Assembly: GCA_026391255.1 (NCBI GenBank)
Contig: JAPLDU010000055.1
Span: 925 to 64,924 of the forward strand
Reading direction: 5' to 3'
Length of the DNA stretch: 64,000 nucleotides
Origin: Bacteroidia bacterium
Lineage (GTDB): Bacteria > Bacteroidota > Bacteroidia > Bacteroidales > JAPLDU01
This document shows, in pieces, positions 2,813 through 60,330 of the stretch (its first letter is position 1; every line of letters begins with the position of its first letter). Position numbers and translations under genes: made by a program. The notes beneath the pieces were generated by a model. The model did no database searches, was not told the origin of the DNA, and worked only from the letters and a program-made list of their open reading frames with translations.

Positions 2813-4186
2813 ATGCGGCCATTTGATAACATAAAAACTATTTACCTGCTTGGGGCCGGTGGTATCGGGATGAGCGCCCTTGCCCGTTATTTCAGGCTTA
2901 TGGGCAAAATAGTCACCGGTTACGACCGTACTCCGACCTCTCTCACCGATGAACTGATATCAGAAGGTATTGACCTGCATTTTGAGGAAGATTTGAAAAT
3001 TGCTGCCGGATATAAGCCTGATGAAACACTGGTGATCTATACACCCGCTGTTCCGCCTGATCATGCAGAACTGGACTGGTTCAGGATGAATAATTTCACA
3101 GTCATGAAAAGGGCGGAAGTGCTTGGAGTATTGTCAGCTGAAAAAGATACTGTCGCTGTTGCCGGCACACATGGAAAGACTACCGTCAGTACTATGATTG
3201 CCCATATTCTTAAGTGTTCGGATAAAGATTGTTCCGCCTTCCTGGGAGGCATCTCTAAAAATTACAACACCAATTTTCTTTATTCCGGGCATTCAGATAT
3301 CGTGGTAACAGAAGCCGACGAATTTGACCGGTCATTCCTTCATCTCAGTCCTCAAATTGCCGTGGTTACTGCAACAGACGCCGATCACCTCGATATTTAC
3401 GGTGATCTCAGGGAACTCAGAAAATCCTTCAGCCTGTTCACTTCAAAAATAAAAAACGGAGGTCACCTGGTTTATCATAAGGGCATTGATCTGCAAATAA
3501 ATGTTGACAGTTCGGTCAAAGTACATTCTTATTCTGCAAGTGAAGAAGCTGATTTTTATGCACGGAATATCAGCCTGCAGAATGGTTTTTTCCATTTTGA
3601 CCTTGTCTTGCCCGGTAACAGGTCGATCCCTGGTATTTCTTTACAGGCGCCGGGCAGGATAAATGTGGAAAATGCCGTGGCGGCAGCCGCAGCTGCATGG
3701 CTTGCCGGCGCCGGACAGGAATCAGTTAAAACTGCATTGCAGAGTTTCACCGGGGTAATACGCAGGCTTGACATCAGGATCGATCGTAACGACTTAATAT
3801 ATATCGATGATTATGCCCATCATCCGGAAGAACTCAGGGCTGCCATCAGTTCAGTGAAAGAAGTCTGGCCCGGCAAAAAAATCACCGGTATCTTCCAGCC
3901 TCATTTATACAGCCGTACCCGTGATTTTGCAACAGAATTTGCACAAAGTCTCGACCTTCTTGACGGGCTTCTGTTGCTCGAAATATATCCCGCCCGTGAG
4001 TCAGCCATCCCGGGTGTTGATTCAGGCTTGATATTCAACAAGATGAAACTTAAAAACAAAATATTATGTACAAAAGACCAGGTGATTGATATTCTGAAAA
4101 ATAAAAAACCGGAAGTATTGATGACACTTGGCGCTGGTGATATTGACGGACTGGTTGATCCTATTATTGATTTATTTTCAGAATGA
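2813..4186 (+). CDS. murC: UDP-N-acetylmuramate--L-alanine ligase
   Basis: N-terminal GAGGIGMSALA, Mur-ligase P-loop AGTHGKTT and the DDYAHHPEE motif are present. The gene sits in the expected dcw position. Confidence 0.95.
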   Translation: MRPFDNIKTIYLLGAGGIGMSALARYFRLMGKIVTGYDRTPTSLTDELISEGIDLHFEEDLKIAAGYKPDETLVIYTPAVPPDHAELDWFRMNNFTVMKRAEVLGVLSAEKDTVAVAGTHGKTTVSTMIAHILKCSDKDCSAFLGGISKNYNTNFLYSGHSDIVVTEADEFDRSFLHLSPQIAVVTATDADHLDIYGDLRELRKSFSLFTSKIKNGGHLVYHKGIDLQINVDSSVKVHSYSASEEADFYARNISLQNGFFHFDLVLPGNRSIPGISLQAPGRINVENAVAAAAAAWLAGAGQESVKTALQSFTGVIRRLDIRIDRNDLIYIDDYAHHPEELRAAISSVKEVWPGKKITGIFQPHLYSRTRDFATEFAQSLDLLDGLLLLEIYPARESAIPGVDSGLIFNKMKLKNKILCTKDQVIDILKNKKPEVLMTLGAGDIDGLVDPIIDLFSE

Positions 4187-5046
4187 TCAGAAAAATACTT
4201 GAAATATTGAACTGGTTGGTCATCATTGCTTTCCTTGTGATCACTCTCGGCTTTGCCACTACACGGCAGGGTGAAATCACCTGCAAGGCAACATATGTCA
4301 CAATTACCAATAACTCAGAAAATAAATTTGTCGATTCAGATGATATTATTGAATTATTAAAGAATAAAAGCAGAAAGCTGATAGGTACTCCCATAGATCA
4401 AATCAACCTGTCATGGATCGAAAAAGCAATTATGACACATCCTGCGGTAAAAAAGGCAAATGCATGGCTGACAATTGACGGCAGGTTACACATTGACGTG
4501 GAGCAAAGAAGACCCATTATCAGGATCATCAGGAGTAATCTTGAGAGCTTTTATATTGACGACCAGGGAAAGCTGATGCAATTGTCGGAAAAATATGCTG
4601 CCAGGGTATTGGTGGCGAACGGAAATATTATCGAGCCATTTATAAGGTATTATAAAACCAGGTTGCCGGATGATCCCGGTGAATTGTATAAATGCGGCAT
4701 AATCCAGGACCTGGTTTTCCTTGCATGTTTCATCGATCATAATACATTCTGGCGTTCACAGATTGAACAGATCTATGTAAACGACAGGAATGAATTTGAA
4801 CTGATACCCCTGGTGGGTAAACAAACCATTATTCTGGGAAGCATCGACAATTTCGGGAAGAAGTTCAGGTACCTGAAAGCCGTGTATGACAAAGGATTCA
4901 GCAAGACAGGCTGGAGCATTTATAATACCATCAATTTGAAATATGAAAACCAGGTTATTTGCACCAGGACGGATGCAAAGCCTGAGAATCCGGTTGATTC
5001 CATTAAAGTGAACATTCTTCCTCAGGCCGGTGGAAAACATAAATAA
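4183..5046 (+). CDS. ftsQ: cell division protein FtsQ
   Basis: It has a single N-terminal TM helix and lies between murC and ftsA. Its start overlaps the murC stop by 4 nt (ATGA). Confidence 0.8.
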   Translation: MIRKILEILNWLVIIAFLVITLGFATTRQGEITCKATYVTITNNSENKFVDSDDIIELLKNKSRKLIGTPIDQINLSWIEKAIMTHPAVKKANAWLTIDGRLHIDVEQRRPIIRIIRSNLESFYIDDQGKLMQLSEKYAARVLVANGNIIEPFIRYYKTRLPDDPGELYKCGIIQDLVFLACFIDHNTFWRSQIEQIYVNDRNEFELIPLVGKQTIILGSIDNFGKKFRYLKAVYDKGFSKTGWSIYNTINLKYENQVICTRTDAKPENPVDSIKVNILPQAGGKHK

Positions 5047-5054
5047 TTTCGGAT

Positions 5055-6332
5055 ATGAAAGATTATTTGGTAGCAGTTGATATTGGTACAACCAAAACAC
5101 TCGCACTGGCAGGCAGGAAAGATGCTTCGGGCCTGCTCGAGATTATTGGTGGTTGTTCTTTACCTTCAGAAGAAGGCATCAAAAGAGGCAATGTCATTAA
5201 TATTGAGGTCACGGCACAGGCAATCAAAGCTGTTACTGATAAACTGAAACAGACGGCAGGAATAGATTTTAATTCTGTGATTACCTGTATTTCCGGCCAG
5301 TACATCAAAGCTTTGGTGAACAGGAGTTCAAAATATATTGATTCACCGGAAAGTGAAATCCGCTTAAAGGATACAACAGATCTTGCTGCCGATATGCATA
5401 AAATTTCATTAGAACCGGGCGACAAGATTCTGCATATTATTCCTCAAAGCTATATTGTAGATAATGAGGCAGGAATTAAAAATCCGGTGGGAATTTTCGG
5501 TAAAAGACTGGAGGGAAATTTTTATATAGTGGTTGGTCCGGAAATGTCGGTGAAAAACATCGGGAAATGTTTCAGCCGTGCCGGTCTCGATGTTGCTGAC
5601 CTGGAATTTGTTCCTCTGGCAGCGGCAAATGCAGTTCTCAGCCAGGACGAAAAAGATGCGGGAGTAGTATTGGTTGATTTTGGCGGAGGTACAACCAGCC
5701 TGGCTATTTATTATGACGGAATAATCAGGCATACTGCCGTAATTCCCTTTGGTGGTAATGCCGTTACAAATGATATCAAGGAAGGTTGTTCAATTCTTCC
5801 CCGCCAGGCCGAATCACTGAAACTCCAGTATGGTTCTGCCATGGGCGATGCAGCCGACGAGAACAAGGTGGTTTCAATTCCAGGTATCAGTGGCCGTAAG
5901 CCCAGGGAAATTTCCTTCCGTAACCTGGCATTTATTATTCAGGCAAGGATGGAAGAGCTGATCGAAATGGTATCAAAAGAGGTTGAAAGCTCCGGCATAG
6001 CTTCAAAACTGAGCGCAGGCATGGTTATTTCAGGTGGTGGCGCTATGTTACCCGGTCTGCCTGAACTGATCAGCTTTCATACAGGGATGGATGTCAGGAT
6101 TGGCATACCAGATGAGAAAATATCCAAAAACAGCAGGGAAGAGTTTCTGAAAACCAGCCATGCTGTCGGTATAGGCCTGTTGATGTATGGCTTTGAAAAA
6201 GGACTCGTTCTGCCTGACCCGGTCGTGGAAGAAGAAGAAGAGAATTCAGAACCTGTTGGAAAGAAAACAGGACTGTTTGGCTTGTTCGGTAGGAAAATAA
6301 AAGGAATAATGGATGAGGATAATATTCATTGA
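5055..6332 (+). CDS. ftsA: cell division protein FtsA (actin-like ATPase)
   Basis: Phosphate-binding motifs VDIGTTK and VDFGGGTT are present. The C-terminus ends in a hydrophobic/basic tail, GLFGLFGRKIKGIM, typical of the FtsA membrane-targeting helix. Confidence 0.93.
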   Translation: MKDYLVAVDIGTTKTLALAGRKDASGLLEIIGGCSLPSEEGIKRGNVINIEVTAQAIKAVTDKLKQTAGIDFNSVITCISGQYIKALVNRSSKYIDSPESEIRLKDTTDLAADMHKISLEPGDKILHIIPQSYIVDNEAGIKNPVGIFGKRLEGNFYIVVGPEMSVKNIGKCFSRAGLDVADLEFVPLAAANAVLSQDEKDAGVVLVDFGGGTTSLAIYYDGIIRHTAVIPFGGNAVTNDIKEGCSILPRQAESLKLQYGSAMGDAADENKVVSIPGISGRKPREISFRNLAFIIQARMEELIEMVSKEVESSGIASKLSAGMVISGGGAMLPGLPELISFHTGMDVRIGIPDEKISKNSREEFLKTSHAVGIGLLMYGFEKGLVLPDPVVEEEEENSEPVGKKTGLFGLFGRKIKGIMDEDNIH

Positions 6333-6362
6333 TAAGTGACTGATCAGGCGGAAAGGCTTATA

Positions 6363-6395
6363 TTAGTTATGAGTTATGAATTATGAGTGATGAGT
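6363..6395. repeat. 'TTATGAG' word repeat; near-identical inverted copy at 23447-23478
   Basis: TTAGTTATGAGTTATGAATTATGAGTGATGAG compares with the reverse complement of 23447-23478, TTAGTTATGAGTTATGAATTATGAGTTATGAA. They differ at 2 of 32 positions. Confidence 0.85.
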
Positions 6396-6445
6396 AATTT
6401 AAATAAATATCAGGTTTTAGGTATCAAGTATTAGGACTTATTAAC

Positions 6446-6510
6446 CATGACGTTCATGACGTCCATGACGTTCATGACGATCATGACTAATGACTTACGA
6501 CTGTTGACTA
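6446..6510. repeat. 9-nt tandem repeat (CATGACGTN)x4-5, decaying into GACTTACGACT words
   Basis: The sequence is CATGACGTT CATGACGTC CATGACGTT CATGACGAT CATGAC TAATGACTTACGACTGTTGACTA. It lies upstream of ftsZ-A. Confidence 0.9.
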
Positions 6511-6551
6511 TTATCAATGACCTTATTTGTTATGATAACAATTTTTTGAGA

Positions 6552-7805
6552 ATGAAAGAGAAAAATTTATTTCCTGAAATAGTGGATAAACCTGATGATC
6601 TGATTGATTTTGCATTTACAGAATTCAGTCCCTCCATTATCAAAGTAATCGGGGTCGGTGGAGGTGGCAGTAATGCAGTGAACCACATGTTTGAAACCGG
6701 CATTGAGGATGTGGAATTTGTCGTGTGTAATACCGATTCGCAGGCTTTGGCCAATAGCCCGGTAAGAACGAAAATCCAGTTAGGAACCGGCATCACTGAA
6801 GGCAGAGGGGCAGGAAGCGATCCGGGTGTCGGAGAACAAGCCGCCCGTGAAAACCTGCAGGATATCATTAATGTACTCGAGAATAATACAAAAATGGTGT
6901 TTATCACAGCAGGAATGGGAGGTGGTACCGGTACCGGGGCTGCTCCGGTGATCGCAGAAGAAGCCAGATCAAGAAAAATCCTCACGGTCGCTATTGTTAC
7001 GATTCCTTTTAAGACTGAAGTAGGTAACCGTTACAAACAAGCACTGGCTGGGATAAAAAAATTGCAAACACATGTTGATTCCCTGATCGTCATTGATAAT
7101 GAGCAGATAAACAAGAATTACGGTGATTCATCCTTTTCCGAAGCATTTAAGGAGGCAGATAAAATTTTGGGAACTGCAGCAAAAGCCATTGTGCAGATTA
7201 TCAAGATACATGGAATGTGGAATGTTGATTTCAATGACGTGAAAAAGGTAATGACCGACAGTGGTGTAGCCCTTATGGGAATTGGTGTTGCCAGTGGTGC
7301 TGACAGGGCCGTTACGGCTGTGGAAAATGCATTGAAATCGCCCCTTCTGAATAATAATAATATCAGGGATGCAAAAAAGATTTTACTGAATATTATTTCA
7401 GGAACAAATGAAATTCTGATGAGGGAGACACAGGATATTTGCCTGGCCCTGCAAAAAGAAACAGGGAGTGATCAGGAAGAATTCATCATGGGTGTGGCCA
7501 GGGATATGGGCCTGGGGGAAAACATATGTGTCACAGTAATAGCTACTGGATTTAAATCAGTTAACCCGGAGGATTACCGTAAACCTGAAGAACCTGAGAA
7601 TTTGATCCCTCCTGTTCCGGAAGAACCACCTGTTCCGGATGAAACTTCTTTTCAGGAAGAAATACAGCCGGAAGAGCCGGTTCAGGAGGACATACATCCT
7701 GAAGAACCAAAAATGAAGAAAAAGAAAATAAAAGACAAAAATCAGTTGAGTCTGTGGGAGAAATTCATGGAGAGTAAAAAGATATTTAATGAAGATATTA
7801 ATTAG
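6552..7805 (+). CDS. ftsZ: FtsZ paralog A (most divergent; acidic Pro/Glu-rich linker, basic/amphipathic C-terminus)
   Basis: FtsZ motifs GVGGGGSNAVNHM, NTDSQAL, GMGGGTGTGAAP (tubulin signature), NVDFNDV (T7) and VTVIATGF are present. The preferred start is ATG 6552 (MKEKNLF...). The longer ORF from 6447 begins inside a 9-nt tandem repeat (MTFMTSMTFMT). Confidence 0.9.
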   Translation: MKEKNLFPEIVDKPDDLIDFAFTEFSPSIIKVIGVGGGGSNAVNHMFETGIEDVEFVVCNTDSQALANSPVRTKIQLGTGITEGRGAGSDPGVGEQAARENLQDIINVLENNTKMVFITAGMGGGTGTGAAPVIAEEARSRKILTVAIVTIPFKTEVGNRYKQALAGIKKLQTHVDSLIVIDNEQINKNYGDSSFSEAFKEADKILGTAAKAIVQIIKIHGMWNVDFNDVKKVMTDSGVALMGIGVASGADRAVTAVENALKSPLLNNNNIRDAKKILLNIISGTNEILMRETQDICLALQKETGSDQEEFIMGVARDMGLGENICVTVIATGFKSVNPEDYRKPEEPENLIPPVPEEPPVPDETSFQEEIQPEEPVQEDIHPEEPKMKKKKIKDKNQLSLWEKFMESKKIFNEDIN

Positions 7806-7834
7806 TCATAAGTCGTAAGTCATAAGTCATAAGG
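7805..7834. repeat. 9-nt tandem repeat (GTCATAAGT-like)x3; related words at 6485-6510 and 61366-61396 (inverted)
   Basis: The sequence is GTCATAAGTCGTAAGTCATAAGTCATAAGG and starts at the ftsZ-A stop codon. Confidence 0.85.
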
Positions 7835-7903
7835 CAAAAGTTATAAGACAAAAGGGAATAAGGAGTACGTAGTAATGCTATTGGAAATATGCAGAAAAAT
7901 CAG

Positions 7904-7936
7904 GTAATTGTAATTCGTAAATCGTAATTCTAAAAT
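7904..7936. repeat. inverted copy of the 'TTAGAATTACGA' head of the 13781/17212/24402 element family
   Basis: The sequence is GTAATTGTAATTCGTAAATCGTAATTCTAAAAT. It ends 8 nt before the ftsZ-B ATG. Confidence 0.75.
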
Positions 7937-7944
7937 AATATAGT

Positions 7945-9303
7945 ATGGCAGAAACTGAAAATATCAGCGCACCGGTAAGCCAGTCTTCCATAATAAAAGT
8001 AATGGGAGTAGGCGGAGGAGGCAGCAATGCTGTGAACCATATGTTCAGGCAGGGCATCAGAGATGTTGATTTCCTGGTTTGTAATACCGATGCACAGGCA
8101 TTATTGCTCAGTCCCGTGCCTGCTAAAGTACAGATCGGTGAATCTCTCACCGATGGAAGAGGCGCCGGAAACAACCCTGAGATCGGATGCAAAGCAGCCC
8201 TTGAAACAGAGGAATCACTGAGGACTATCCTTTCAGAAAACACTAAAATGCTTTTTATAACGGCAGGAATGGGAGGTGGAACAGGTACGGGCGCAGCGCC
8301 TGTGATCGCACGAATTGCACACGAACTCGATATTCTTACCGTGGGCATAGTAACAATTCCTTTCAGATTTGAAGGAAATGTGAGGATCAGGCAAGCCGTG
8401 GCTGGTATTGAAGAACTTGAGAAATATGTCGACTCATTGCTGGTTGTCAACAATGAGAAACTCAGGAGTATGTTCGGCGATCAGAGGATTTCCGAAGCTT
8501 TTGAGAATGCTGATAATATCCTGACGGCTGCTGCAAAAGGAATTGCTGAGATTATCACCCTGCCCGGTTATGTCAATGTTGACTTTGCCGATGTTCATAC
8601 CGTAATGCATAAGAGTGGTGTGGCCATCATGGGATCTGCCAATTCCACAGGCGAGAACCGTGCTATGCATGCAATCCGCAAAGCGCTCAGTTCTCCCTTG
8701 CTGAACAGCAACCATATTACGGGGGCAAAAAATGTCCTGCTGAATGTGACCTCGGGAACCGAAGAATTCAGACTTGATGAATTATGCGAGATCACCGATT
8801 TTGTACAAAGCGAGGTTGAAGATAATGTCCAGATAATCTGGGGTCACGGAATTGATCCGCGGCTTGGCGATAACATATGCGTCACGGTGATTGCCACTGG
8901 TTTTGAAAAGGAAAATGTTCATGATGTTTTCATTGAAAAAGAAAAACTTGACAGTGCAGAGATTCACAGGCTCATTGATAAGATCGACCTGGAAATAATC
9001 AGCAAAAAATCAGAAGTTGCTATTGCCTCTGATCCGGAAGATTACAGGAAGGTTTTTCCTGAACAAATAACCCAAATTCCGGAAGAAGAAAAGCAGGAGT
9101 CGAAAAAAGCAGAAATTCTGGAGGAACTGATGACAGTTCATCTCAAACCGGAACATATTTTTGCAGATGTTCAGGAAAAGAAGGAAGAGGTAAAAACAGA
9201 AAGCATGTTTTCAAAAAGTCACAGACCGAAAGTAAAAAAAGCAAAAGAAGACAGGGAGAAAGGCTGGATACAGACCACCATCGAAGGATTCTTTACATCA
9301 TGA
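7945..9303 (+). CDS. ftsZ: FtsZ paralog B
   Basis: GVGGGGSNAVNHM, NTDAQAL, GMGGGTGTGAAP, PFRFEG, NVDFADV and VTVIATGF are present. It has a long charged C-terminal extension ending in GWIQTTIEGFFTS. Confidence 0.92.
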   Translation: MAETENISAPVSQSSIIKVMGVGGGGSNAVNHMFRQGIRDVDFLVCNTDAQALLLSPVPAKVQIGESLTDGRGAGNNPEIGCKAALETEESLRTILSENTKMLFITAGMGGGTGTGAAPVIARIAHELDILTVGIVTIPFRFEGNVRIRQAVAGIEELEKYVDSLLVVNNEKLRSMFGDQRISEAFENADNILTAAAKGIAEIITLPGYVNVDFADVHTVMHKSGVAIMGSANSTGENRAMHAIRKALSSPLLNSNHITGAKNVLLNVTSGTEEFRLDELCEITDFVQSEVEDNVQIIWGHGIDPRLGDNICVTVIATGFEKENVHDVFIEKEKLDSAEIHRLIDKIDLEIISKKSEVAIASDPEDYRKVFPEQITQIPEEEKQESKKAEILEELMTVHLKPEHIFADVQEKKEEVKTESMFSKSHRPKVKKAKEDREKGWIQTTIEGFFTS

Positions 9304-9518
9304 TCAATAGTTCATCAGAATTGAAAATAAAGCCCCAGTAAGAATAAATTGTACTGTACTATATAATAAAATGTTACAATCAATATAATCACTATTTTGT
9401 GTGACTTAGTGTAATCCTTTGTGTTCCTTTGTGGTTAATAAAAAAAGTTTTACCACAAAGGACGCTAAGGATGTCACAAAGGTTTACAAAGGAATTTTAA
9501 CAGAAAGTCAAAAAAATT

Positions 9519-10949
9519 ATGTTAGGAAAAATCCATATCGGAAAGAATGGTGCATCCACCATCAAAGTGATCGGAGTAGGAGGCGGAGGAAGCAATGCAG
9601 TGAATCACATGTACAACGCCGGGATAGCGGAAGTGGTTTTTGCTGTGTGTAACACTGATGTCCAGGCATTGAAAATAAGCCCGGTGCCAATAAAGATACA
9701 ACTGGGAGCGACACTGACAGGAGGCAGGGGAGCAGGGAACAAGCCTGAAACCGGCAGGATGTCTGCCGTAGAAACCATTGACCAGATTGACGAAATATTG
9801 AAAGACGACACCAGGATGGTATTTATCACTGCAGGAATGGGAGGAGGTACCGGTACCGGCGCAGCGCCTGTCATTGCAAAAACTGCCAGGGAAAGAGGTA
9901 TCCTGACCATCGGAATCGTCACTTTACCTTTCAGATTTGAGGGAAAGCGCAGGATTGACCAGGCAATCAAGGGAATCCGGGAACTGCAGGATTATGTAGA
10001 CTCATTGCTGGTCATCAATAATGAGAAGTTAAGAGAGATGTATGGTAACCTGAAAATATCCGATGCATTCCTGGTGGCCGACAATATTCTTACCATTGCT
10101 GCGCGAAGCATTGCAGAGATTATCACTATCCAGGGCTATGTAAATGTTGATTTTTCCGATATTAAAACAGTAATGAAAGACAGCGGCCTGGCCATCATGG
10201 GTTCGGCTACTGCATCCGGCGAAGGCCGGGCTGAAAAGGCCGTCCGCAATGCAATCAGCTCACCTCTGCTTGATAATAATGAAATTGCAGGAGCTAAAAA
10301 TATCCTGCTTCACGTATCGTCCGGTACACAAGAGGTAACCATGGATGAAATAGGGATCATTTCTGATTTTCTGCAGGAACAGGCCGGCGCACAGACAAAT
10401 ATCATCTGGGGTAACAGCATCAATCCTGCATTGGGAGAACAGTTATCAGTGACCATTATCGCAACCGGTTTCAAATCAGAAGTTGTACCTGATCTCTATG
10501 TCGCTGAGCATTATAACCGGTCTGTTTATGAACTGGGTAAAAACTCAGATGACAATCAACAAGCATCAGGAAACTCAAAAAAAGAAAAGGCTGCAATGAT
10601 TGATAATGCAATGACCAGTTCTCAACCGAAAACCACATTTACGGGAAGCGATGCAAAAATCAAGACTGACAGGGCTGAAACCGGTACTGAAGTGACAAAG
10701 AATCCGGCTAAGGATGAATCATTGATTAAAGAAGAAAAATTAAAAAAAACTACCGATGGTCTGAATTACCGTAAAGATATCAATGAAATTGAATCCATTC
10801 CAGCATACCTGAGAAAACAGGCTTTAAAAAAAATATTAGAAGAAAAAGCAAACAACCAGGAATTATCTGACAGGGTCTTGCATAGTAATGACAAAGGGCA
10901 GGTGGTCATTGGTGAAAACCCGTTTATCGGGAAAAAGAAAGTTGACTGA
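9519..10949 (+). CDS. ftsZ: FtsZ paralog C (carries the canonical C-terminal FtsA-binding peptide IPAYLRKQ)
   Basis: GVGGGGSNAVNHM, NTDVQAL, GMGGGTGTGAAP, PFRFEGKRR, NVDFSDI and VTIIATGF are present. The conserved peptide ESIPAYLRKQ is encoded at 10797-10820 and is followed by about 42 more residues. Confidence 0.93.
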   Translation: MLGKIHIGKNGASTIKVIGVGGGGSNAVNHMYNAGIAEVVFAVCNTDVQALKISPVPIKIQLGATLTGGRGAGNKPETGRMSAVETIDQIDEILKDDTRMVFITAGMGGGTGTGAAPVIAKTARERGILTIGIVTLPFRFEGKRRIDQAIKGIRELQDYVDSLLVINNEKLREMYGNLKISDAFLVADNILTIAARSIAEIITIQGYVNVDFSDIKTVMKDSGLAIMGSATASGEGRAEKAVRNAISSPLLDNNEIAGAKNILLHVSSGTQEVTMDEIGIISDFLQEQAGAQTNIIWGNSINPALGEQLSVTIIATGFKSEVVPDLYVAEHYNRSVYELGKNSDDNQQASGNSKKEKAAMIDNAMTSSQPKTTFTGSDAKIKTDRAETGTEVTKNPAKDESLIKEEKLKKTTDGLNYRKDINEIESIPAYLRKQALKKILEEKANNQELSDRVLHSNDKGQVVIGENPFIGKKKVD

Positions 10950-10958
10950 AATTCCTCT

Positions 10959-11831
10959 CTACCCCAGATCAGAGATCAGATCATTAATATCTTTAAGCTT
11001 CTGGGAATAGCCCATTTTCTCGTATGAGAATGCGAGATATTGAAGTAGCCGGCGGATGGTTTCAATATTACTGCATGGGATATAATACGATTTATCAGAA
11101 CTTAGTTTCTGCTGCTTGATAAAGAGGTCGATTTCCTTTCTGCCGAAAACCATGCCTTTGTTAAAAGGATTGATATAAAACAGGATATCTTCGTTTTCAT
11201 CTTCATTACCGGCATGCAGCGATGATATCTCATCACGGTAAGCAAGTACGAAGTTTTTGGGAAGATTAACCCCGTAAACAGGGAGATTCAGGCGTTGGGC
11301 AACTACGGAATAAATGATGGACAAGGTTACGGGATTACCCTTTTTTGTCTCAAATACCTGGTTGATATAAGAATTCAGAGGTGAGTCGAAATTGGCAATA
11401 TTGCCCGACAGTTTATTTACATCAAACATTATATGATTTATGATCTTGACTTTCTCAAGCGCCGTGAGGTTACTGTTAAGTTCAAGCCAGACATCGTGCT
11501 TAAGTTTTTCTATTTGTTTATCAATGTCTTCGTACCTGATTTCGCTGAACTGGTAACGTGCAACCCAGAAAGCGCCTTCGAGCAGGTTGTTTTCACGTGT
11601 GGTGGCCCAGGCCACTAAGTTCTGCCTGACATTTGCAAATTGTATCTTCTGAATGAGCTGCTCAATCCTGTGCTGAAGCAACAGGTTGAGTGTTCCTTCC
11701 CAGGTTCTTTCCAGTTCATCAATCACCGGCAGACCGATATCAAACAACATTGATTCAACCTGGGTGAAAATATCCTCATCCGGGTCATCAAGCAGTCTTA
11801 TCAATGCATTTATGCGTTCATTTGAAACCAT
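10959..11831 (-). CDS. transglutaminase-like / SirB1-family protein
   Basis: The 290-aa protein resembles, by eye, the transglutaminase-like-plus-TPR family (...GNPVTLSIIYSVVAQRLNLPVYGVNLPKNFVLAY...). It converges on ftsZ-C with a 9-bp gap. Confidence 0.55.
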   Translation of the reverse strand: MVSNERINALIRLLDDPDEDIFTQVESMLFDIGLPVIDELERTWEGTLNLLLQHRIEQLIQKIQFANVRQNLVAWATTRENNLLEGAFWVARYQFSEIRYEDIDKQIEKLKHDVWLELNSNLTALEKVKIINHIMFDVNKLSGNIANFDSPLNSYINQVFETKKGNPVTLSIIYSVVAQRLNLPVYGVNLPKNFVLAYRDEISSLHAGNEDENEDILFYINPFNKGMVFGRKEIDLFIKQQKLSSDKSYYIPCSNIETIRRLLQYLAFSYEKMGYSQKLKDINDLISDLG

Positions 11832-11867
11832 AAATCAAAATAAATTATCAGAATAACCACGGAGACA

Positions 11868-11918
11868 CTAAATTAATTTGAAAATTTGAAAATGTGCAAA
11901 TTTGAAAATGAAATCCGT
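11868..11918 (-). promoter_or_regulatory. 51-bp repeat module upstream of the transglutaminase-like gene (copy 1), promoter-like
   Basis: CTAAATTAATTTGAAAATTTGAAAATGTGCAAATTTGAAAATGAAATCCGT differs from 23362-23412 at one base. On the minus strand it reads TTTG, then 21 nt, then TAATTTAG. It ends 36 nt upstream of the start codon. Confidence 0.5.
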
Positions 11919-20208: not shown

Positions 20209-20397
20209 GAAAATTTGAAAATTTGAGGATTTGAAAATTATTAGATGTGAGTTGAACAATTATGAACAATTGAAAATAAGAGCAATTGAACAAATAAATA
20301 TATGAAATATAGAATATTATCAAACCGATAATTATCAAATTATCAACTTGCCTAATTATCACATTGTCAAATTATCACATTATCATATTATCACATT
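20209..20397. repeat. spacer composed of consecutive word arrays (TTTGAAAAT)n, (GAACAATT)n, (AATTATCAC)n
   Basis: The spacer contains GAAAATTTGAAAATTTGAGGATTTGAAAATT, then GTTGAACAATTATGAACAATTGAAAATAAGAGCAATTGAACAA, then AATTATCAAATTATCAAC..AATTATCACATTGTCAAATTATCACATTATCATATTATCACATT. Confidence 0.85.
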
Positions 20398-23327
20398 TTC
20401 AAATCATTTACCAGTGCATCGTACAATATCTCTGCCGGATGATAGGCTCTGCGGCTGGTTCCGTCGGCAATCTGGTGGCGGCAGCTCGTGCCGGGGGCAC
20501 AGATGAGCACGTCTTCATCGGTTTTTCTGATTTCTGGGAACAAGACTAATTCACCGATCTTCATTGAGACATCGTAATGTTCTTTTTCATAACCGAATGA
20601 ACCTGCCATTCCGCAACATCCTGAAGGAATTTCTTCAACGGTGTAGTTTTCCGGAAAAGAAAGGATTTTTTTTGTCGGAGAGGTAGAAGCAATAGCCTTT
20701 TGCTGGCAGTGACCGTGCAGCCTGATGTGCAGCTTGTTGCCGGTGAATGAGGATTTATCAATATTACCTTTCTCAATTTCCTTTTCAAGGAACTCTTCCA
20801 GCATGAATGAATTTTCAGCAATTTTCCTTGCGGAATCTCTCAGTTCATCCGGAACAAGTTCAGGGTATTCATCCCTGAAAGCCAGGATAGCTGAAGGTTC
20901 GATACCGATCAGCGGAGTAGACGGGCTGATAATGGATGATAATAGCGCCACATTCTTTGAGGCAATTTTTTTTGCTTTTCGAACCAGTCCTTTTGACAGG
21001 TAAGCTCTTCCGCTTTCAAGATGCCGGGGAATAATGACTGTGTAACCAAGTTTTTCAAGTAACAATATGGCTTTTATACCGATTTCAGGTTCGTTGTAAT
21101 TGGTGAATTCATCGTTGAAAAGGTATACTTTTCCTTTTGAACCGGATTTGTTTTCAGGTTCGGTTTTTTTCTTCATCCATGCACCAAGTGTAAGTCCTGA
21201 CAGGTGTGGTATCTGCCGTTCACGGGCAAAACCAAGCCAGCGTTTCAGTAATCCTGATGCTGTTTTGTTTTTGAAAAAGAAGTTGGTTAGGTCCGGAACT
21301 AATGAACCTATTTTGCTGATGGATGAGATATGGGCGATCATCCATGCCCTGAAAGGAATTCCATTGGCATCATAGTAATGCTGCAGGAACTCAGCTTTGA
21401 ATTTAGCCATATCGACTCCCGAAGGGCACTCTGATTTGCAGGCTTTACAGGAAAGGCAGAGGTCCATCACTTCATAAATCTCTTTATGGTTTAATGGGTC
21501 TTTACTCCCGGGGCGGTAGATAAAATCCCTGAGAATATTGGCCCTGGCCCGGGTGGTATCATATTCATTCCGGGTAGCCATGTAACTCGGACACATGGTG
21601 CCTCCGATCACTTCAGTTTTGCGGCAATCAGCCGATCCGTTGCACTTTTCAACAGCGCGTACAAAACCTTCCGTTGATGAATAGTCGAAATATGTTTTGA
21701 TTTGTGGTGGTAATGTCCCAGGTTCTACCCTGAACGAGGAGGTGATGGATGGTGTATCGGTAATTTTCCCGGGATTAAAAATGTGGTCAGGATCCCAGGT
21801 TTGTTTAATTTCTTTGAGCAGGCGGTAATTTTTCTCACCGATCATAAAAGGAATAAATTCACCGCGCAGCCTGCCATCACCATGCTCACCGCTGAGTGAG
21901 CCCCTGTATTTTTTAACGAGAACGGCAATCTCAGAGGCAATGGTATGAAACAGATCCACATCTTTTTTATCCTTCAGATTGAGGACAGGCTTCAGGTGCA
22001 ATTCTCCGGAACCTACATGCGCATAATAAACACAGGTCAGATGATGTTTTGCCAGAATTTTCTGAAACTCCTCAATATATGCAGGAAGCGATTCGCAACT
22101 CACTGCGGTATCTTCTATCACCGCTACGCTCTGTGCATCGCCCGGGATGTTCGACAGCAATCCAAGTCCAGCTTTCCGGAGGTCCCACACCTTTTTTGTT
22201 TCCGGTATAAAGAGCAATGGGAAATAATAGCCAAGCCCGGCGTTTCTCATCTCAGTTTCCATGGATGATGCCAGTTGCTGAATTTCTTCCCTGGTTTCAC
22301 GGGCGAACTCGATCATCAGGATTGCTCCCGGATCACCTTTGACAAAAAACCGGTTTTTGCTGTGTTCTATGCTGTACCTGGTGCAATCAAGGATGATCTT
22401 ATCCATGAGTTCCACTGCACCGGGTTTGTACTTCAAAGCAATCAGGTTGGCCAGTAATGCCTGGTTCACCGTATCGAAATGTGCGGCCACCACGCCTGTT
22501 TCTGAAGGTGGCAAAGGTACCAGGTTCAGTTTTATTTCTGTGATGAAGGCAAGAGTACCTTCTGATCCGGCTATCAGCTTTGTCATGTTGAAAGGCTTGC
22601 CATTGCCGGTAAAGGGATCGGTCTCGAGCAGGATATCGATCGCATAACCGGTATTGCGGCGATGCAAGGCAGGATCAGGAAATTCCTTGCGTATTTCTTC
22701 CTGGTTCAGTCTGTCCGACAATACCTGCCTGAGTTGCCTGTAAATCCTGTTTTCAAGATTATCACCAAAACATTTCTGATCAAATTCTTCCTTTGATAAA
22801 GGTTTGAATTCCACTTCGGAACCATCGCTGAGAAATGCATTTACAGAAATGGTATGATCCCTGGTGCTGCCGTATATAATGGAATGTGAGCCACATGAAT
22901 TATTTCCCACCATACCTCCGATCATGCAACGGTTAGAAGTGGATGTTTCCGGTCCGAAAAATAACCCGGAAGCAGCCAGGTATTTGTTCAGTTCATCAAG
23001 CACCACCCCTGGTTCCACCTTTACCCAATGTTCAGCAACATTCAGTTCGATGATTTTATTCAGGTGCTTTGACACATCCACTACGATACCGTTACCGACT
23101 ACCTGGCCGGCCAAAGAGGTGCCGGCAGTTCGCGGGATAACTGGTATTTTGAACTTTCCCGAAAAATCAAGGATTTTTCTGATGTCATTTTTGTTGCGAG
23201 GAATGGCAACTGCAAGCGGTAATTCCTTGTAAACCGAAGCATCTGTTGCATATAAGAGCCGCATGGTTTGGCCGGTATGAAATTCCCCTTCCAGCGAATG
23301 GCCGAGCTCTGTAAGTTTTTGGTGCAT
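20391..23327 (-). CDS. FAD-binding and (Fe-S)-binding oxidoreductase (GlcD-GlcF fusion, YdiJ-like 2-hydroxyacid dehydrogenase)
   Basis: The N-terminus is an FAD PCMH-type domain. A central ferredoxin-like cluster motif (CLSCKACKSECP) is present, and the C-terminus has Cys-rich CCG-like repeats. The start is taken at MHQKLTEL (23327). The ORF track extends to 23351. Confidence 0.8.
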   Translation of the reverse strand: MHQKLTELGHSLEGEFHTGQTMRLLYATDASVYKELPLAVAIPRNKNDIRKILDFSGKFKIPVIPRTAGTSLAGQVVGNGIVVDVSKHLNKIIELNVAEHWVKVEPGVVLDELNKYLAASGLFFGPETSTSNRCMIGGMVGNNSCGSHSIIYGSTRDHTISVNAFLSDGSEVEFKPLSKEEFDQKCFGDNLENRIYRQLRQVLSDRLNQEEIRKEFPDPALHRRNTGYAIDILLETDPFTGNGKPFNMTKLIAGSEGTLAFITEIKLNLVPLPPSETGVVAAHFDTVNQALLANLIALKYKPGAVELMDKIILDCTRYSIEHSKNRFFVKGDPGAILMIEFARETREEIQQLASSMETEMRNAGLGYYFPLLFIPETKKVWDLRKAGLGLLSNIPGDAQSVAVIEDTAVSCESLPAYIEEFQKILAKHHLTCVYYAHVGSGELHLKPVLNLKDKKDVDLFHTIASEIAVLVKKYRGSLSGEHGDGRLRGEFIPFMIGEKNYRLLKEIKQTWDPDHIFNPGKITDTPSITSSFRVEPGTLPPQIKTYFDYSSTEGFVRAVEKCNGSADCRKTEVIGGTMCPSYMATRNEYDTTRARANILRDFIYRPGSKDPLNHKEIYEVMDLCLSCKACKSECPSGVDMAKFKAEFLQHYYDANGIPFRAWMIAHISSISKIGSLVPDLTNFFFKNKTASGLLKRWLGFARERQIPHLSGLTLGAWMKKKTEPENKSGSKGKVYLFNDEFTNYNEPEIGIKAILLLEKLGYTVIIPRHLESGRAYLSKGLVRKAKKIASKNVALLSSIISPSTPLIGIEPSAILAFRDEYPELVPDELRDSARKIAENSFMLEEFLEKEIEKGNIDKSSFTGNKLHIRLHGHCQQKAIASTSPTKKILSFPENYTVEEIPSGCCGMAGSFGYEKEHYDVSMKIGELVLFPEIRKTDEDVLICAPGTSCRHQIADGTSRRAYHPAEILYDALVNDLKM

Positions 23328-39336: not shown

Positions 39337-39464
39337 GTCACAAGTCACTGGTCACGAGTGATGAGGTGATGAAGTGATGAAGTGATGAAGTGACGAAGTG
39401 ACGAAGTGACGAAGTGATGATGAGATTTGAACCTGATACCTGATACCTGATACCTGATACCTGA
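39337..39464. repeat. composite microsatellite: GTCAC words, (GTGA[TC]GAA)x8 8-mers, then (ACCTGAT)x4 7-mers
   Basis: The sequence is GTCACAAGTCACTGGTCACGAGTGATGAGGTGATGAAGTGATGAAGTGATGAAGTGACGAAGTGACGAAGTGACGAAGTGATGATGAGATTTGAACCTGATACCTGATACCTGATACCTGA. Confidence 0.9.
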
Positions 39465-45183: not shown

Positions 45184-45324
45184 ACAAACCATTGCAAACG
45201 AAGGGCTGCACCTTGTCATTTTTTATTATTTATCCGCTTTCGGAAGCAAATTATTGACAATACGGAACAAAAAAAAATAACCCAACTGGGTCATTTGCAA
45301 TGGCTTGGCGGAGAAAGAGGGATT
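45184..45324. repeat. direct repeat copy A: duplicate of the tRNA-Ser downstream region, terminator hairpin and last 19 nt of the tRNA
   Basis: The sequence is ACAAACCATTGCAAACGAAGGGCTGCACCTTGTCATTTT...ACCCAACTGGGTCATTTGCAATGGCTTGGCGGAGAAAGAGGGATT. The segment 45306-45324 is identical to 45472-45490. Confidence 0.85.
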
Positions 45325-45351
45325 ACTGGCATGATCCCGTCAAGAGGGGCT

Positions 45352-45490
45352 ACAAACCATTGCAAATGAAGGACTGCGCCCTGTCATTTTTGTTATTTTT
45401 CCGCTTTCAAAAGCAAGCTTTTGACGCTACAAAACAAATAAAATGACCCAACTGGGTCATTTGCAATGGTTTGGCGGAGAAAGAGGGATT
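45352..45490. repeat. direct repeat copy B (the copy continuous with the intact tRNA-Ser)
   Basis: It is colinear with copy A at a period of about 168 bp. A weaker third relic is visible at about 45095-45135 (GCCCTGCAATGATTCTTTTGGTGGGCTATTCG). Confidence 0.85.
45428..45462 (-). terminator. hairpin plus T-tract downstream of tRNA-Ser
   Basis: ATGACCCA/TGGGTCAT form a stem. On the minus strand it is followed by TTTTATTTGTTTTG. The same hairpin recurs in the duplicated unit at about 45279-45296. Confidence 0.5.
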
Positions 45491-45561
45491 CGAACCCCCG
45501 GTCCAGTTACCCGGACAACGGTTTTCAAGACCGCCGCATTCGACCGCTCTGCCATTTCTCC
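45472..45561 (-). tRNA. tRNA-Ser (anticodon UGA), class II with long variable arm, CCA encoded
   Basis: The reverse complement reads GGAGAAATGGCAGAGCGGTCGAATGCGGCGGTCTTGAAAACCGTTGTCCGGGTAACTGGACCGGGGGTTCGAATCCCTCTTTCTCCGCCA. The acceptor stem is GGAGAAA/TTTCTCC. The anticodon loop is CTTGAAA. The T-loop is GGTTCGAATCC. Confidence 0.93.
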
Positions 45562-60137: not shown

Positions 60138-60199
60138 GCAGTAGGCAGTAGGCTATAGTCAAAAGTAAATAGTCAGTAGTAATAAGTTAATGCATTATG

Positions 60200-60330
60200 C
60201 TTGATACCTGATACTTGATACCTGATACCAGTGACTCATGACTTGTCACCCCGTCACTCCATCACCCTGTCACTTTGTCACTTTGTCACCGCGTCACTTC
60301 GTCACTTCGTCTCTCAGTCTCTCTGTCACC
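60200..60330. repeat. composite microsatellite made of the same modules in a different order and orientation: (TGATACC)n, AGTGACTCATGACTTGTCAC, (NNNGTCAC)x9
   Basis: The sequence is CTTGATACCTGATACTTGATACCTGATACCAGTGACTCATGACTTGTCACCCCGTCACTCCATCACCCTGTCACTTTGTCACTTTGTCACCGCGTCACTTCGTCACTTCGTC... Confidence 0.9.

Follow-up and report, generated by a model that had tools for sequence, protein, structure and literature searches.

Three tandem full-length ftsZ genes with divided terminal peptides at the end of a Bacteroidales dcw cluster

Bacterial cytokinesis is usually modelled with a single FtsZ that is held by adaptors, FtsA for example. What, then, is the meaning of a locus at which three complete ftsZ genes stand in a row behind ftsA? 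The question is raised by a metagenome-assembled genome (MAG) of a Bacteroidia bacterium (Bacteroidales, lineage JAPLDU01; assembly GCA_026391255.1, contig JAPLDU010000055.1), of which we analysed 64,000 nucleotides, positions 925 to 64,924 of the forward strand, called here the window. Its positions 6552-10949 (+) hold three ftsZ genes, ftsZ-A, ftsZ-B and ftsZ-C, as the last genes of the dcw cluster (genes for division and the cell wall). We lean, with restrained confidence, towards the view that these genes of an uncultured Bacteroidia clade form a conserved and vertically inherited module whose three products would build one division ring, C being tethered by FtsA and A and B anchoring themselves, and that the module arose by staggered tandem duplications.

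The three FtsZ proteins and their terminal peptides

The genes ftsZ-A [6552-7805, 417 amino acids (aa)], ftsZ-B (7945-9303, 452 aa) and ftsZ-C (9519-10949, 476 aa) all lie on the plus strand directly 3' of ftsA (5055-6332, + strand, 425 aa; Pfam FtsA and SHS2_FTSA), with spacers of 219 bp between ftsA and ftsZ-A (6333-6551), 139 bp between ftsZ-A and ftsZ-B (7806-7944) and 215 bp between ftsZ-B and ftsZ-C (9304-9518). A first, sequence-only reading had reported three full-length genes on the same strand with the last two of these spacers, and the lengths that it gave for them are exact. The triplet terminates the dcw cluster, as that reading also held, since the next gene, a transglutaminase-like gene (10959-11831, - strand), is convergent on the opposite strand. 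NCBI lists the three products as MCX6257707.1, MCX6257708.1 and MCX6257709.1, encoded on an 81.5-kb contig, and names every one of them 'cell division protein FtsZ'.

Single-copy Bacteroidales FtsZ proteins carry characteristic peptides at both ends. An N-terminal peptide (NTP), (D/E)(I/L)(M/I)NFDLP, was counted in all of the ~70 single-copy proteins examined, and a C-terminal peptide (CTP), E(N/D)(I/V)PAYxR(K/R), followed by the extension ...SRYSL...DNSYLHDNVD, in every one whose C-terminus was displayed. The triplet genomes divide these elements among the paralogs. Throughout them the NTP (LLDFAF) is kept by A alone, with F20, A21 and F22 invariant in the A family; in the window it reads DLIDFAF (6597-6617, +), the counterpart of (I/L)MNFDLP in single-copy proteins. 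The CTP and its extension are kept, again in all triplet genomes, by C alone; the window copy has a CTP of the FtsA-binding type, ESIPAYLRKQ (10791-10820, +), and an extension (10821-10946, +) that has diverged from the Bacteroidia form (...ENPFIGKKKVD). C is without the NTP, B has neither NTP nor CTP and extension, and no PA(Y/F) peptide was found in ~15 A-type or ~20 B-type proteins. A and B end in a Lys-rich stretch followed by a family motif, (G)(I/L)Qxx(I/L)NFFD(D/E) in A and (G)W(I/F)QT(T/K)(I/L/F)(D/E)x(F/L)F in B, where W441, Q443, T444 and F450 are invariant in 18 proteins. The window's A ends in KMKKKKIKDK and LSLWEKFMESKKIFNEDIN (7710-7802, +), a diverged form of the A motif, and its B in the basic stretch RPKVKKAKEDREK and GWIQTTIEGFFTS (9223-9300, +), a tail of the WIQTT type. 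No paralog thus holds the complete ancestral peptide set, which is apparently a signature of subfunctionalisation. Since none has every ancestral module, we infer that all three work jointly in the ring at which the cell divides; the peptide split is the strongest sequence-level argument for such joint action, and it strengthens the idea of a 'functionally partitioned divisome' that the sequence-only reading had put forward.

The cores of the three proteins are complete. Each matches PF00091 (Tubulin, E ~1e-45) and PF12327 (FtsZ_C, E 2e-17 to 2e-24), the two Pfam profiles proposed as a check, and A aligns with FtsZ chains of the PDB across residues 27-334 with an E value of 3e-76. The motifs quoted from the sequence, T1 GVGGGGSNAVNHM, NTDxQAL, the tubulin signature GMGGGTGTGAAP, NVDF(N/A/S)D(V/I) and VT(V/I)IATGF, are all present at the expected sites in A, B and C, and the T1 GGGGxN, NTDxQAL, T4 GGGTGTG and T7 NxDxxD loops are invariant in 14 A-type and 18 B-type proteins. 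Among 150 columns with a conservation of 90% or more in the canonical FtsZ of Bacteroidia, six are changed family-wide in A alone and three in B alone, and a few more conserved columns are altered in A together with B or with Z1, the upstream protein of a two-gene form in Prolixibacteraceae described below. None of these changes touches the quoted GTP-binding or T7 motif residues, since the one change within the T7 loop falls on x of NVDFxD, a variable position. Several changes in A (A to V, T to K, V to I, and NVDFADV to NVDFNDV) lie close together in helix H7 and the T7 loop, which hints that A may be modified at its lower (synergy) face. With no inactivating change on alignment, A, B and C all look like GTPase- and polymerisation-competent FtsZs, as had been predicted. 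The earlier by-eye ranking of the paralogs, with B and C closest and A lower, is borne out by computed local protein identities of 62% (B-C), 56% (A-C) and 49% (A-B), and in the core alone B-C reach 65% vs 55% for A-B.

The proteins are thus FtsZs rather than members of the TubZ, CetZ, FtsZl or BtubA/B types: FtsZ_C is present, the context is dcw, and the closest relatives in databases, with 50-77% identity, are without exception FtsZ proteins of Bacteroidia. Nor are A and B truncated in the manner of the FtsZ1 of Hyphomicrobiales, as they measure 417 and 452 aa, have linkers of ~65 and ~120 aa and conserved terminal motifs, and are encoded inside dcw.

Two side observations concern the A family and the core. 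The column of residue R172 of the window's C has an Arg that is invariant in canonical Bacteroidia FtsZ and in B, Asn in the A family and His in Prolixibacteraceae Z1. From our own alignment this residue presumably corresponds to L169 of Escherichia coli FtsZ, in which the L169R change enhances bundling, and the residues at this column suggest that the paralogs may differ in lateral association. In addition, the linker of ftsZ-A contains an 18-nt unit repeated 2.9 times (7611-7662), coding for PPVPEE-like hexapeptide repeats; this disordered linker evolves through the expansion of repeats.

Conservation, descent and setting of the array

The closest relatives of A in databases have 396-427 aa and 50-77% identity. 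Exact look-ups of six A relatives and three B relatives, with inspection of the genome contexts, found in every case murG-murC-ftsQ-ftsA followed by three FtsZ genes. The order ftsA-A-B-C occurs in at least nine other diverged lineages from NCBI MAGs, JGI, ENA and Logan, hence in at least ten including the window, which answers the proposed search for synteny; by our locus numbers these are L083 (JGI 3300045117), L087 (ENA ERZ27250635), L091/L092, L094 (GCA_024762835.1), L095/L096 (GCA_018401015.1 and GCA_018400275.1), L097, L098 (a 245-kb 'Bacteroidales' contig), L100 (GCA_034721995.1) and L101. Spacers in these relatives are mostly 10-130 bp, reaching ~280-400 bp in L098, and the genes downstream of the triplet vary between lineages, with no candidate partner gene conserved next to it. 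A contig scan with A found no triplet in the best 80 of 247 loci, which is due to its word-pattern method and to the limit of 80 loci and not to absence, and NCBI MAGs with triplets were recovered by exact look-up despite this miss. Estimates of prevalence rest on protein searches, which gave ~15 A-type and ~20 B-type clusters at 90% identity in 5.8 billion proteins.

Neighbour-joining trees of a 305-column FtsZ core place the paralogs inside Bacteroidia FtsZ, with A, B and C each forming one clade of its own (bootstrap 100, 100 and 79-87%, respectively), and the internal topology of the three clades is identical. The tree of the neighbouring genes (MurG, MurC and FtsA) has the triplet genomes monophyletic at 96%. 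The separate clades with their matching topology indicate that the triplication predates the clade and is inherited vertically. Ongoing gene conversion between the copies was considered and ruled out, since the trees group each protein with its own paralog type rather than with the other copies of its genome. Shared derived core residues are too few to settle whether A, B and Z1 have a common origin, with one or two columns per pair and differing residues.

Comparisons of orthologs gave proportions of synonymous differences (pS) of 0.67-0.84, which are saturated, and of nonsynonymous differences (pN) of 0.11-0.30, with dN/dS of 0.07-0.11 where dS could be estimated. A, B and C are all under strong purifying selection, in agreement with the earlier statement that none has decayed. 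C evolves faster than A and B in the subclade formed by the window, L083 and L087 (whole-protein identity 56-67% vs 66-79%), and in the same three genomes the motif of the C extension, ...SRYSL..DNSYLHDNVD, is degraded. This observation suggests that constraint on part of C may have been relaxed once A and B were present.

The array is also sound as an assembly. Matches of 100% to the window over 7805-11893 and 7657-10550 were found in Logan assemblies of runs ERR15302191 and SRR20698651, one of which may be the MAG's own read set; they span the A-B, B-C and C-downstream junctions. The GC (guanine plus cytosine) content is even across the triplet region, and A, B and C are free of frameshifts and internal stops. 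DNA identity among the three copies is only 65-68%, with no long repeats, so the copies are not assembly repeats, as the sequence-only reading had maintained. For practical purposes a chimeric assembly is excluded.

Upstream, all on the plus strand, the dcw cluster of the window comprises ftsW (570-1547), murG (1692-2795), murC (2813-4186) and a Pfam-less open reading frame (ORF) identified as ftsQ by position only (4183-5046); the remainder of the window codes for ordinary housekeeping functions and for a cargo protein whose sorting tail is that of the type IX secretion system (T9SS). This protein, like the NCBI name 'Bacteroidia bacterium', agrees with a place of the organism in Bacteroidota. 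The spacers of the triplet are rich in short repeats. The ftsA-A spacer holds 7-nt and 9-nt tandem repeats (TATGAGT x5 and CATGACGTT x4.7), and an A reading frame starting at 6447 (452 aa) was rejected, as its extra 35 residues are a translated 9-nt tandem repeat and the NCBI product has 417 aa. The A-B spacer holds arrays of AGTCATA (x6.3), which inversely copies the array upstream of A (28 nt, 89%), and of AATCGTA (x3), and the B-C spacer a hairpin (9425-9462) with a 14-bp stem (TCCTTTGTGGTTAA...TTTACCACAAAGGA), flanked by more copies of CTTTGTG/CACAAAG. A simple scan did not class this hairpin among terminators; regulation or processing between B and C could be its function. Scans of the spacers for sigma-70 promoters, terminators and the Bacteroidetes -7 element TAnnTTTG gave nothing above chance. 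A 28-nt inverted repeat of ATGACTN heptamers (6483-6510 and 7803-7830, 89% complementary) exactly brackets ftsZ-A, one arm lying before its start and the other over its stop; arrays of heptamers could yield such a pair by chance, or the pair could record that the spacer repeats have recombined or moved. Intergenic tandem arrays of 7-9 nt occur across the whole window, where Tandem Repeats Finder returned 72 rows (for example AGTGATGA x8, AATTATCA x9.4 and ACCTGAT x4.9; examples of arrays lie at 6361-6395, 6446-6487, 7804-7855, 7906-7934, 20330-20404, 39357-39464 and 60122-60327). The arrays flanking ftsZ-A belong to this genome-wide habit, hence the window's spacers of 139-219 bp are longer than the 10-130 bp of relatives. 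Apart from these arrays, a 166-bp unit is directly repeated 1.8 times with 85% identity at 45184-45490, ending at or overlapping the only tRNA gene of the window (45475-45561, - strand); it may be what is left of an integration site, or else a segment next to the tRNA gene that was duplicated.

The tails of A and B and a model for their origin

The C-terminal helix of FtsA targets the membrane in E. coli and Bacillus subtilis. FtsA of the window ends in GLFGLFGRKIKGIMDEDNIH (6270-6329, +), presumably a membrane-targeting amphipathic helix followed by an acidic end, and the FtsA proteins of triplet and doublet genomes likewise end in a basic stretch, a hydrophobic helix-like segment and acidic residues (for example ...FSQQISLMFNDDDGNMQS in L077). 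The tails of A and B have a basic stretch and a short hydrophobic segment with the pattern i, i+1, i+4/5, i+8/9.

The comparison of these tails gains from the two-gene form, ftsA-ftsZ1-ftsZ2, which tblastn of 80 GTDB loci revealed in Prolixibacteraceae, in genomes that include those of Mariniphaga, Maribellus maritimus, Sunxiuqinia elliptica, Draconibacterium and 'Bacteroidales bacterium 6E' (ftsA followed by two ftsZ genes at loci L003, L019, L045, L065, L066, L069, L072, L073 and L077). In Z2 all of NTP, CTP and extension are present. Z1 keeps the NTP, is devoid of the CTP and ends in a basic stretch and (V/I)DNWFxxxF..(L/F)F(D/E)D (...NWFVRRFSKFFEDDDQNM in the L077 genome). With the Sunxiuqinia Z1 as query, more than 120 protein clusters with this tail were found (P0229-P0348), from Sunxiuqinia, Gaoshiqia and Mangrovibacterium isolates and many MAGs, all labelled just FtsZ. 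The two-gene form is therefore common in cultured Prolixibacteraceae, and multi-FtsZ Bacteroidota are present in databases though undiscussed. The doublet resembles the triplet in that its upstream copy is without the CTP and has a basic and FtsA-like tail while its downstream copy is canonical, but it has two genes and not three, both of its copies keep the NTP, and it belongs to a separate clade: the neighbour-gene tree has a doublet clade at 100%, distinct from the triplet clade, and their sisterhood has a bootstrap of 30%.

Profiles of 30 residues were compared with hhalign. The A and B tails matched with a probability of 87% (P 4e-6), B and Z1 with 70% (P 4e-5), and Z1 and the FtsA tails of single-copy genomes with 75% (P 2e-5), as against at most 0.2% for controls with the C tail. 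When the alignments were reversed or their columns permuted, the real score was attained in 0 of 100 trials for B-Z1, Z1-FtsA and A-FtsA, and in 1 of 100 for A-B, through a score-131 outlier that is probably a parsing artefact. Smith-Waterman comparisons within genomes, set against composition-preserving shuffles, gave a mean z of 1.6 (up to 5.0) for FtsA and Z1 and of 1.3 (up to 4.8) for A and B, with controls against canonical tails remaining flat. When 1,130 ORFs were searched with a hidden Markov model (HMM) of FtsA tails from single-copy genomes, the best non-FtsA matches were Z1 tails, at the extreme C-terminus (E 0.003); the sub-threshold matches of the Z1-tail HMM are almost all extreme C-termini of FtsA, and the A-tail HMM matches the window's A at E 1e-6. 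The similarities form a chain, FtsA tail - Z1 tail - B tail - A tail, in which the link to FtsA runs via the Prolixibacteraceae Z1, and we interpret the tails of A, B and Z1 as likely membrane helices of the FtsA type. Other tail replacements may have occurred: three further Bacteroidota FtsZ-like proteins, P0146 (523 aa), P0086 (420 aa) and P0192 (384 aa), are without the CTP and have other C-termini (for example ...KKIQKMVDTGRQISLKFLD), and may represent independent events.

An engineered FtsZ has the design that these tails suggest. Osawa, Anderson and Erickson reportedly showed in 2008 that FtsZ-mts (for membrane-targeting sequence), whose CTP was replaced by the amphipathic helix of MinD, makes constricting rings in vitro without FtsA. 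The likeness lies in the order of core, linker and (predicted in A and B) membrane-targeting helix; the difference is that FtsZ-mts is an artificial construct, whereas A and B are natural, known from sequence, and stand beside FtsA and a canonical FtsZ.

The reading that we favour would run as follows. The ancestral single FtsZ would have consisted of NTP, core, FtsA-binding CTP and C-terminal extension. C would be tethered via FtsA through its CTP, and in A and B the CTP would have been replaced by a basic stretch and a short helix of the FtsA-tail type, for which we infer direct membrane binding, as in a natural 'FtsZ-mts'; A would also carry whatever partner binds the NTP. All three proteins keep both longitudinal faces and would co-assemble, probably as mixed or co-aligned filaments at midcell. 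As to origin, a first tandem duplication would have had one breakpoint, the left one, within the final codons of ftsA, and the right one in the region of ftsZ that codes for the disordered linker. Such an event would leave ftsA intact and would produce an upstream FtsZ made of core, partial linker and FtsA tail, followed by an intact downstream FtsZ, which is exactly how Z1 and Z2 are arranged. B would stem from a second event, whose left breakpoint fell in the tail of ftsZ-A and whose right breakpoint fell in the canonical copy's linker, and would so have a C-like core and an A-like tail. The NTP would have been lost once, in the common ancestor of B and C, which would explain why it is absent from both. 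The gene order is the one that the model predicts, with the tail-swapped copies upstream and the intact copy last. Staggered duplication would fit this order, the core identities, the tail similarities and the NTP distribution, without being proven by them; a tail-swapped copy may instead simply have been duplicated, with unequal rates of evolution afterwards.

Several observations weigh against the self-anchoring, jointly acting module and its proposed descent. Direct hhalign comparison gives only 13% for A-FtsA and 3% for B-FtsA, the Smith-Waterman scores of FtsA with A and with B are not significant, and direct HMM search likewise gave nothing significant for these pairs; convergence may account for similarity between compositionally biased segments of 30 residues. 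The hydrophobic moment of the tails (0.44-0.75) does not discriminate them from shuffled sequences (mean 0.52), acidic residues follow the helix, and a protein-binding peptide is equally compatible with the sequence. AlphaFold2 places a helix at residues 401-413 of A with low confidence (the alignment is shallow), and its model of B, from an 18-sequence alignment, has a pLDDT (predicted local distance difference test) score of 56.8. The window's own A tail, LSLWEKFMESKKIFNEDIN, has diverged from the family motif, and the first paralog of L100 (L100:4596-5969, 457 aa, ...DDKNPESDAFNKN) is without the hydrophobic end of the FFD(D/E) type; its Lys-rich region is still matched by the A-tail HMM (E 2e-5), B and C are typical in that genome, and its end may be due to a lineage-specific loss, a frameshift or a different tail. 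Deep branching in the FtsZ trees is weak, with B+C at ~50% bootstrap by neighbour-joining only, and the grouping of A with Z1 (78-88%) joins two long branches and may be long-branch attraction. Finally, with repeat-filled spacers of 139-219 bp, co-transcription in the window is not assured.

Alternative roles, known systems and significance

A stronger version of the favoured reading holds that the three FtsZs form an obligate three-component system, in which successive duplications captured the helix and the docking peptides were subfunctionalised, so that no copy can replace the ancestor. We regard this version as a tentative possibility. If it were true, bacteria would have converged on the pairs of a directly binding and an adaptor-bound FtsZ of archaea and plastids, and the Prolixibacteraceae doublet would be a culturable intermediate stage.

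It seems unlikely that A and B are ring components whose tails are short linear motifs docking a protein partner (an anchor, bundler or regulator) rather than membrane helices. The acidic ends of the tails and hydrophobic moments no higher than those of shuffles speak for it, as do the invariant W, Q, T and F of the B tail, more typical of a specific peptide-protein contact, and the canonical CTP is itself a docking peptide. Yet the tails are preceded by Lys-rich stretches, as are many membrane-targeting sequences, their profiles resemble the extreme C-terminus of FtsA, a membrane-targeting helix in model bacteria, and no candidate partner gene is conserved beside the triplet, where the downstream genes differ between lineages.

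We give still less credence to the idea that the ring is essentially the work of C, with A and B as accessories that would tune its dynamics or inhibit its assembly, like Agrobacterium FtsZ1, and would not be required parts. Bacterial ftsZ has undergone 'at least five independent duplications', mostly giving truncated copies outside dcw, and the extra FtsZ of Hyphomicrobiales is non-essential and inhibitory when over-expressed (bioRxiv 10.1101/2025.09.29.679267); moreover the FtsA-binding peptide is present in C only. The alphaproteobacterial paralogs (FtsZ1 and FtsZ3 of Agrobacterium, and those of Rhizobiaceae/Phyllobacteraceae and Bradyrhizobium) are, like the triplet, lineage-specific duplications that have long been retained, but they lie outside dcw, consist mostly of a GTPase domain and a short linker, and are non-essential modulators, whereas every copy of the triplet is full length, within dcw and equipped with its own conserved terminal motif. 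In particular, A and B retain the full C-terminal domain and a long linker, unlike truncated paralogs, and evolve as slowly as C or slower. Their intact T7 and nucleotide-face motifs indicate that they are not cappers, and C is devoid of the NTP that single-copy relatives retain and only A keeps, which argues against C alone being the equivalent of the ancestor.

That the paralogs build separate structures, serving an alternative division mode, cell shape or a developmental stage, with no mixed ring, appears very improbable. Archaeal CetZ and magnetotactic FtsZm have indeed been recruited to non-division roles, and the long spacers of the window could hold separate promoters. All three genes are nonetheless in dcw right after ftsA in every lineage, with relatives' spacers of 10-130 bp, their cores are of the typical division type, with best PDB and database matches that are all FtsZ, and complementary loss of peptides fits cooperation better than independence. 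There is practically no chance that the triplet is an artefact of assembly or binning, or that two of its copies are decaying duplicates: the source is a MAG, and tandem paralogs can in principle come from mis-assembled strain variants, but this reading is refuted by an inter-copy DNA identity of merely 65-68%, by identical junctions in other read-set assemblies, by the same array in at least nine other lineages with each paralog in its own clade, and by dN/dS of no more than ~0.1 without frameshifts or internal stops.

The reading that we favour, with a tethered C and self-anchoring A and B, has parallels in systems with two FtsZs. Plastid FtsZ2 keeps the C-terminal peptide that binds the membrane protein ARC6, while FtsZ1 has lost contact with ARC6 and has its own membrane-binding C-terminal motif (PMC11285052); two further papers credit FtsZ1 with raising ring dynamics and FtsZ2 with stability (PMC12343686, PMC8142252). 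The plastid pairs, FtsZ1/FtsZ2 of the green lineage and FtsZA/FtsZB of red algae, act in one ring, as the triplet would, and share with the triplet duplicated full-length FtsZs of which one is adaptor-bound and one is CTP-less. The triplet differs as an independent duplication in a free-living bacterium, with three copies in tandem in the dcw operon; it also splits the NTP, its replacement tail resembles that of the neighbouring FtsA, and it is known from sequence alone. Archaeal FtsZ1 and FtsZ2 (Haloferax volcanii, Odinarchaeota) are likewise paralogs with divided labour: OdinFtsZ1 binds the membrane directly by an amphipathic helix and OdinFtsZ2 is recruited by SepF via its C-terminal tail (PMC12583498). 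In contrast with the triplet, that duplication is ancient, preceding archaeal diversification, the genes are non-adjacent, the Odin helix stands at the N-terminus, and SepF serves as adaptor in place of FtsA. A further parallel is the FtsZ of Mycoplasma group 1E, in which a terminal amphipathic helix replaces the conserved C-terminal peptide (CCTP) and binds liposomes (bioRxiv 10.1101/2023.08.29.555414). It is a bacterial FtsZ without the FtsA-binding CCTP and with a terminal helix, as predicted in A and B, but it is the only FtsZ of wall-less cells, whereas A and B, as putative self-anchoring forms, coexist with a canonical CTP-bearing FtsZ and FtsA in a walled diderm.

Multi-FtsZ systems are thus known; what is new here is an array that is bacterial, inside dcw and threefold, with split termini and an FtsA-like tail. 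Full-text searches of 8 million papers, outside which most subscription-journal papers lie, so that absence is not proof, turned up no account of several ftsZ genes, in tandem or otherwise, in Bacteroidota, and no paper in the literature searched has 'ftsZ' together with 'Prolixibacteraceae'; a survey of FtsZ evolution (PMC9871819) and the duplication survey (bioRxiv 10.1101/2025.09.29.679267) do not mention Bacteroidota arrays. The sequence-only reading knew of no described tandem triplet in Bacteroidota, and this stands as far as the searched literature goes, but not for databases, where public MAGs already carry the annotation 'FtsZ' on each of the three genes. Automatic annotation in effect hides multi-FtsZ systems, because all copies receive the label 'cell division protein FtsZ'.

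Studies of rings with several FtsZs are confined to archaea and plastids, whose duplications date far back and in which no ancestral state survives. In the present case one-gene, two-gene (in cultured Prolixibacteraceae with complete genomes) and three-gene states coexist in one bacterial class, and the record of which peptide was assigned to which copy is still readable. This makes several questions directly testable in bacteria: why selection has repeatedly favoured two modes of tethering, what the NTP of FtsZ does, whether self-anchored FtsZ filaments function in vivo beside FtsA, and how breakpoints of tandem duplications that capture the 3' end of a neighbouring gene can give rise to new protein termini. 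For these questions the doublet of cultured Prolixibacteraceae is an experimentally tractable entry point.

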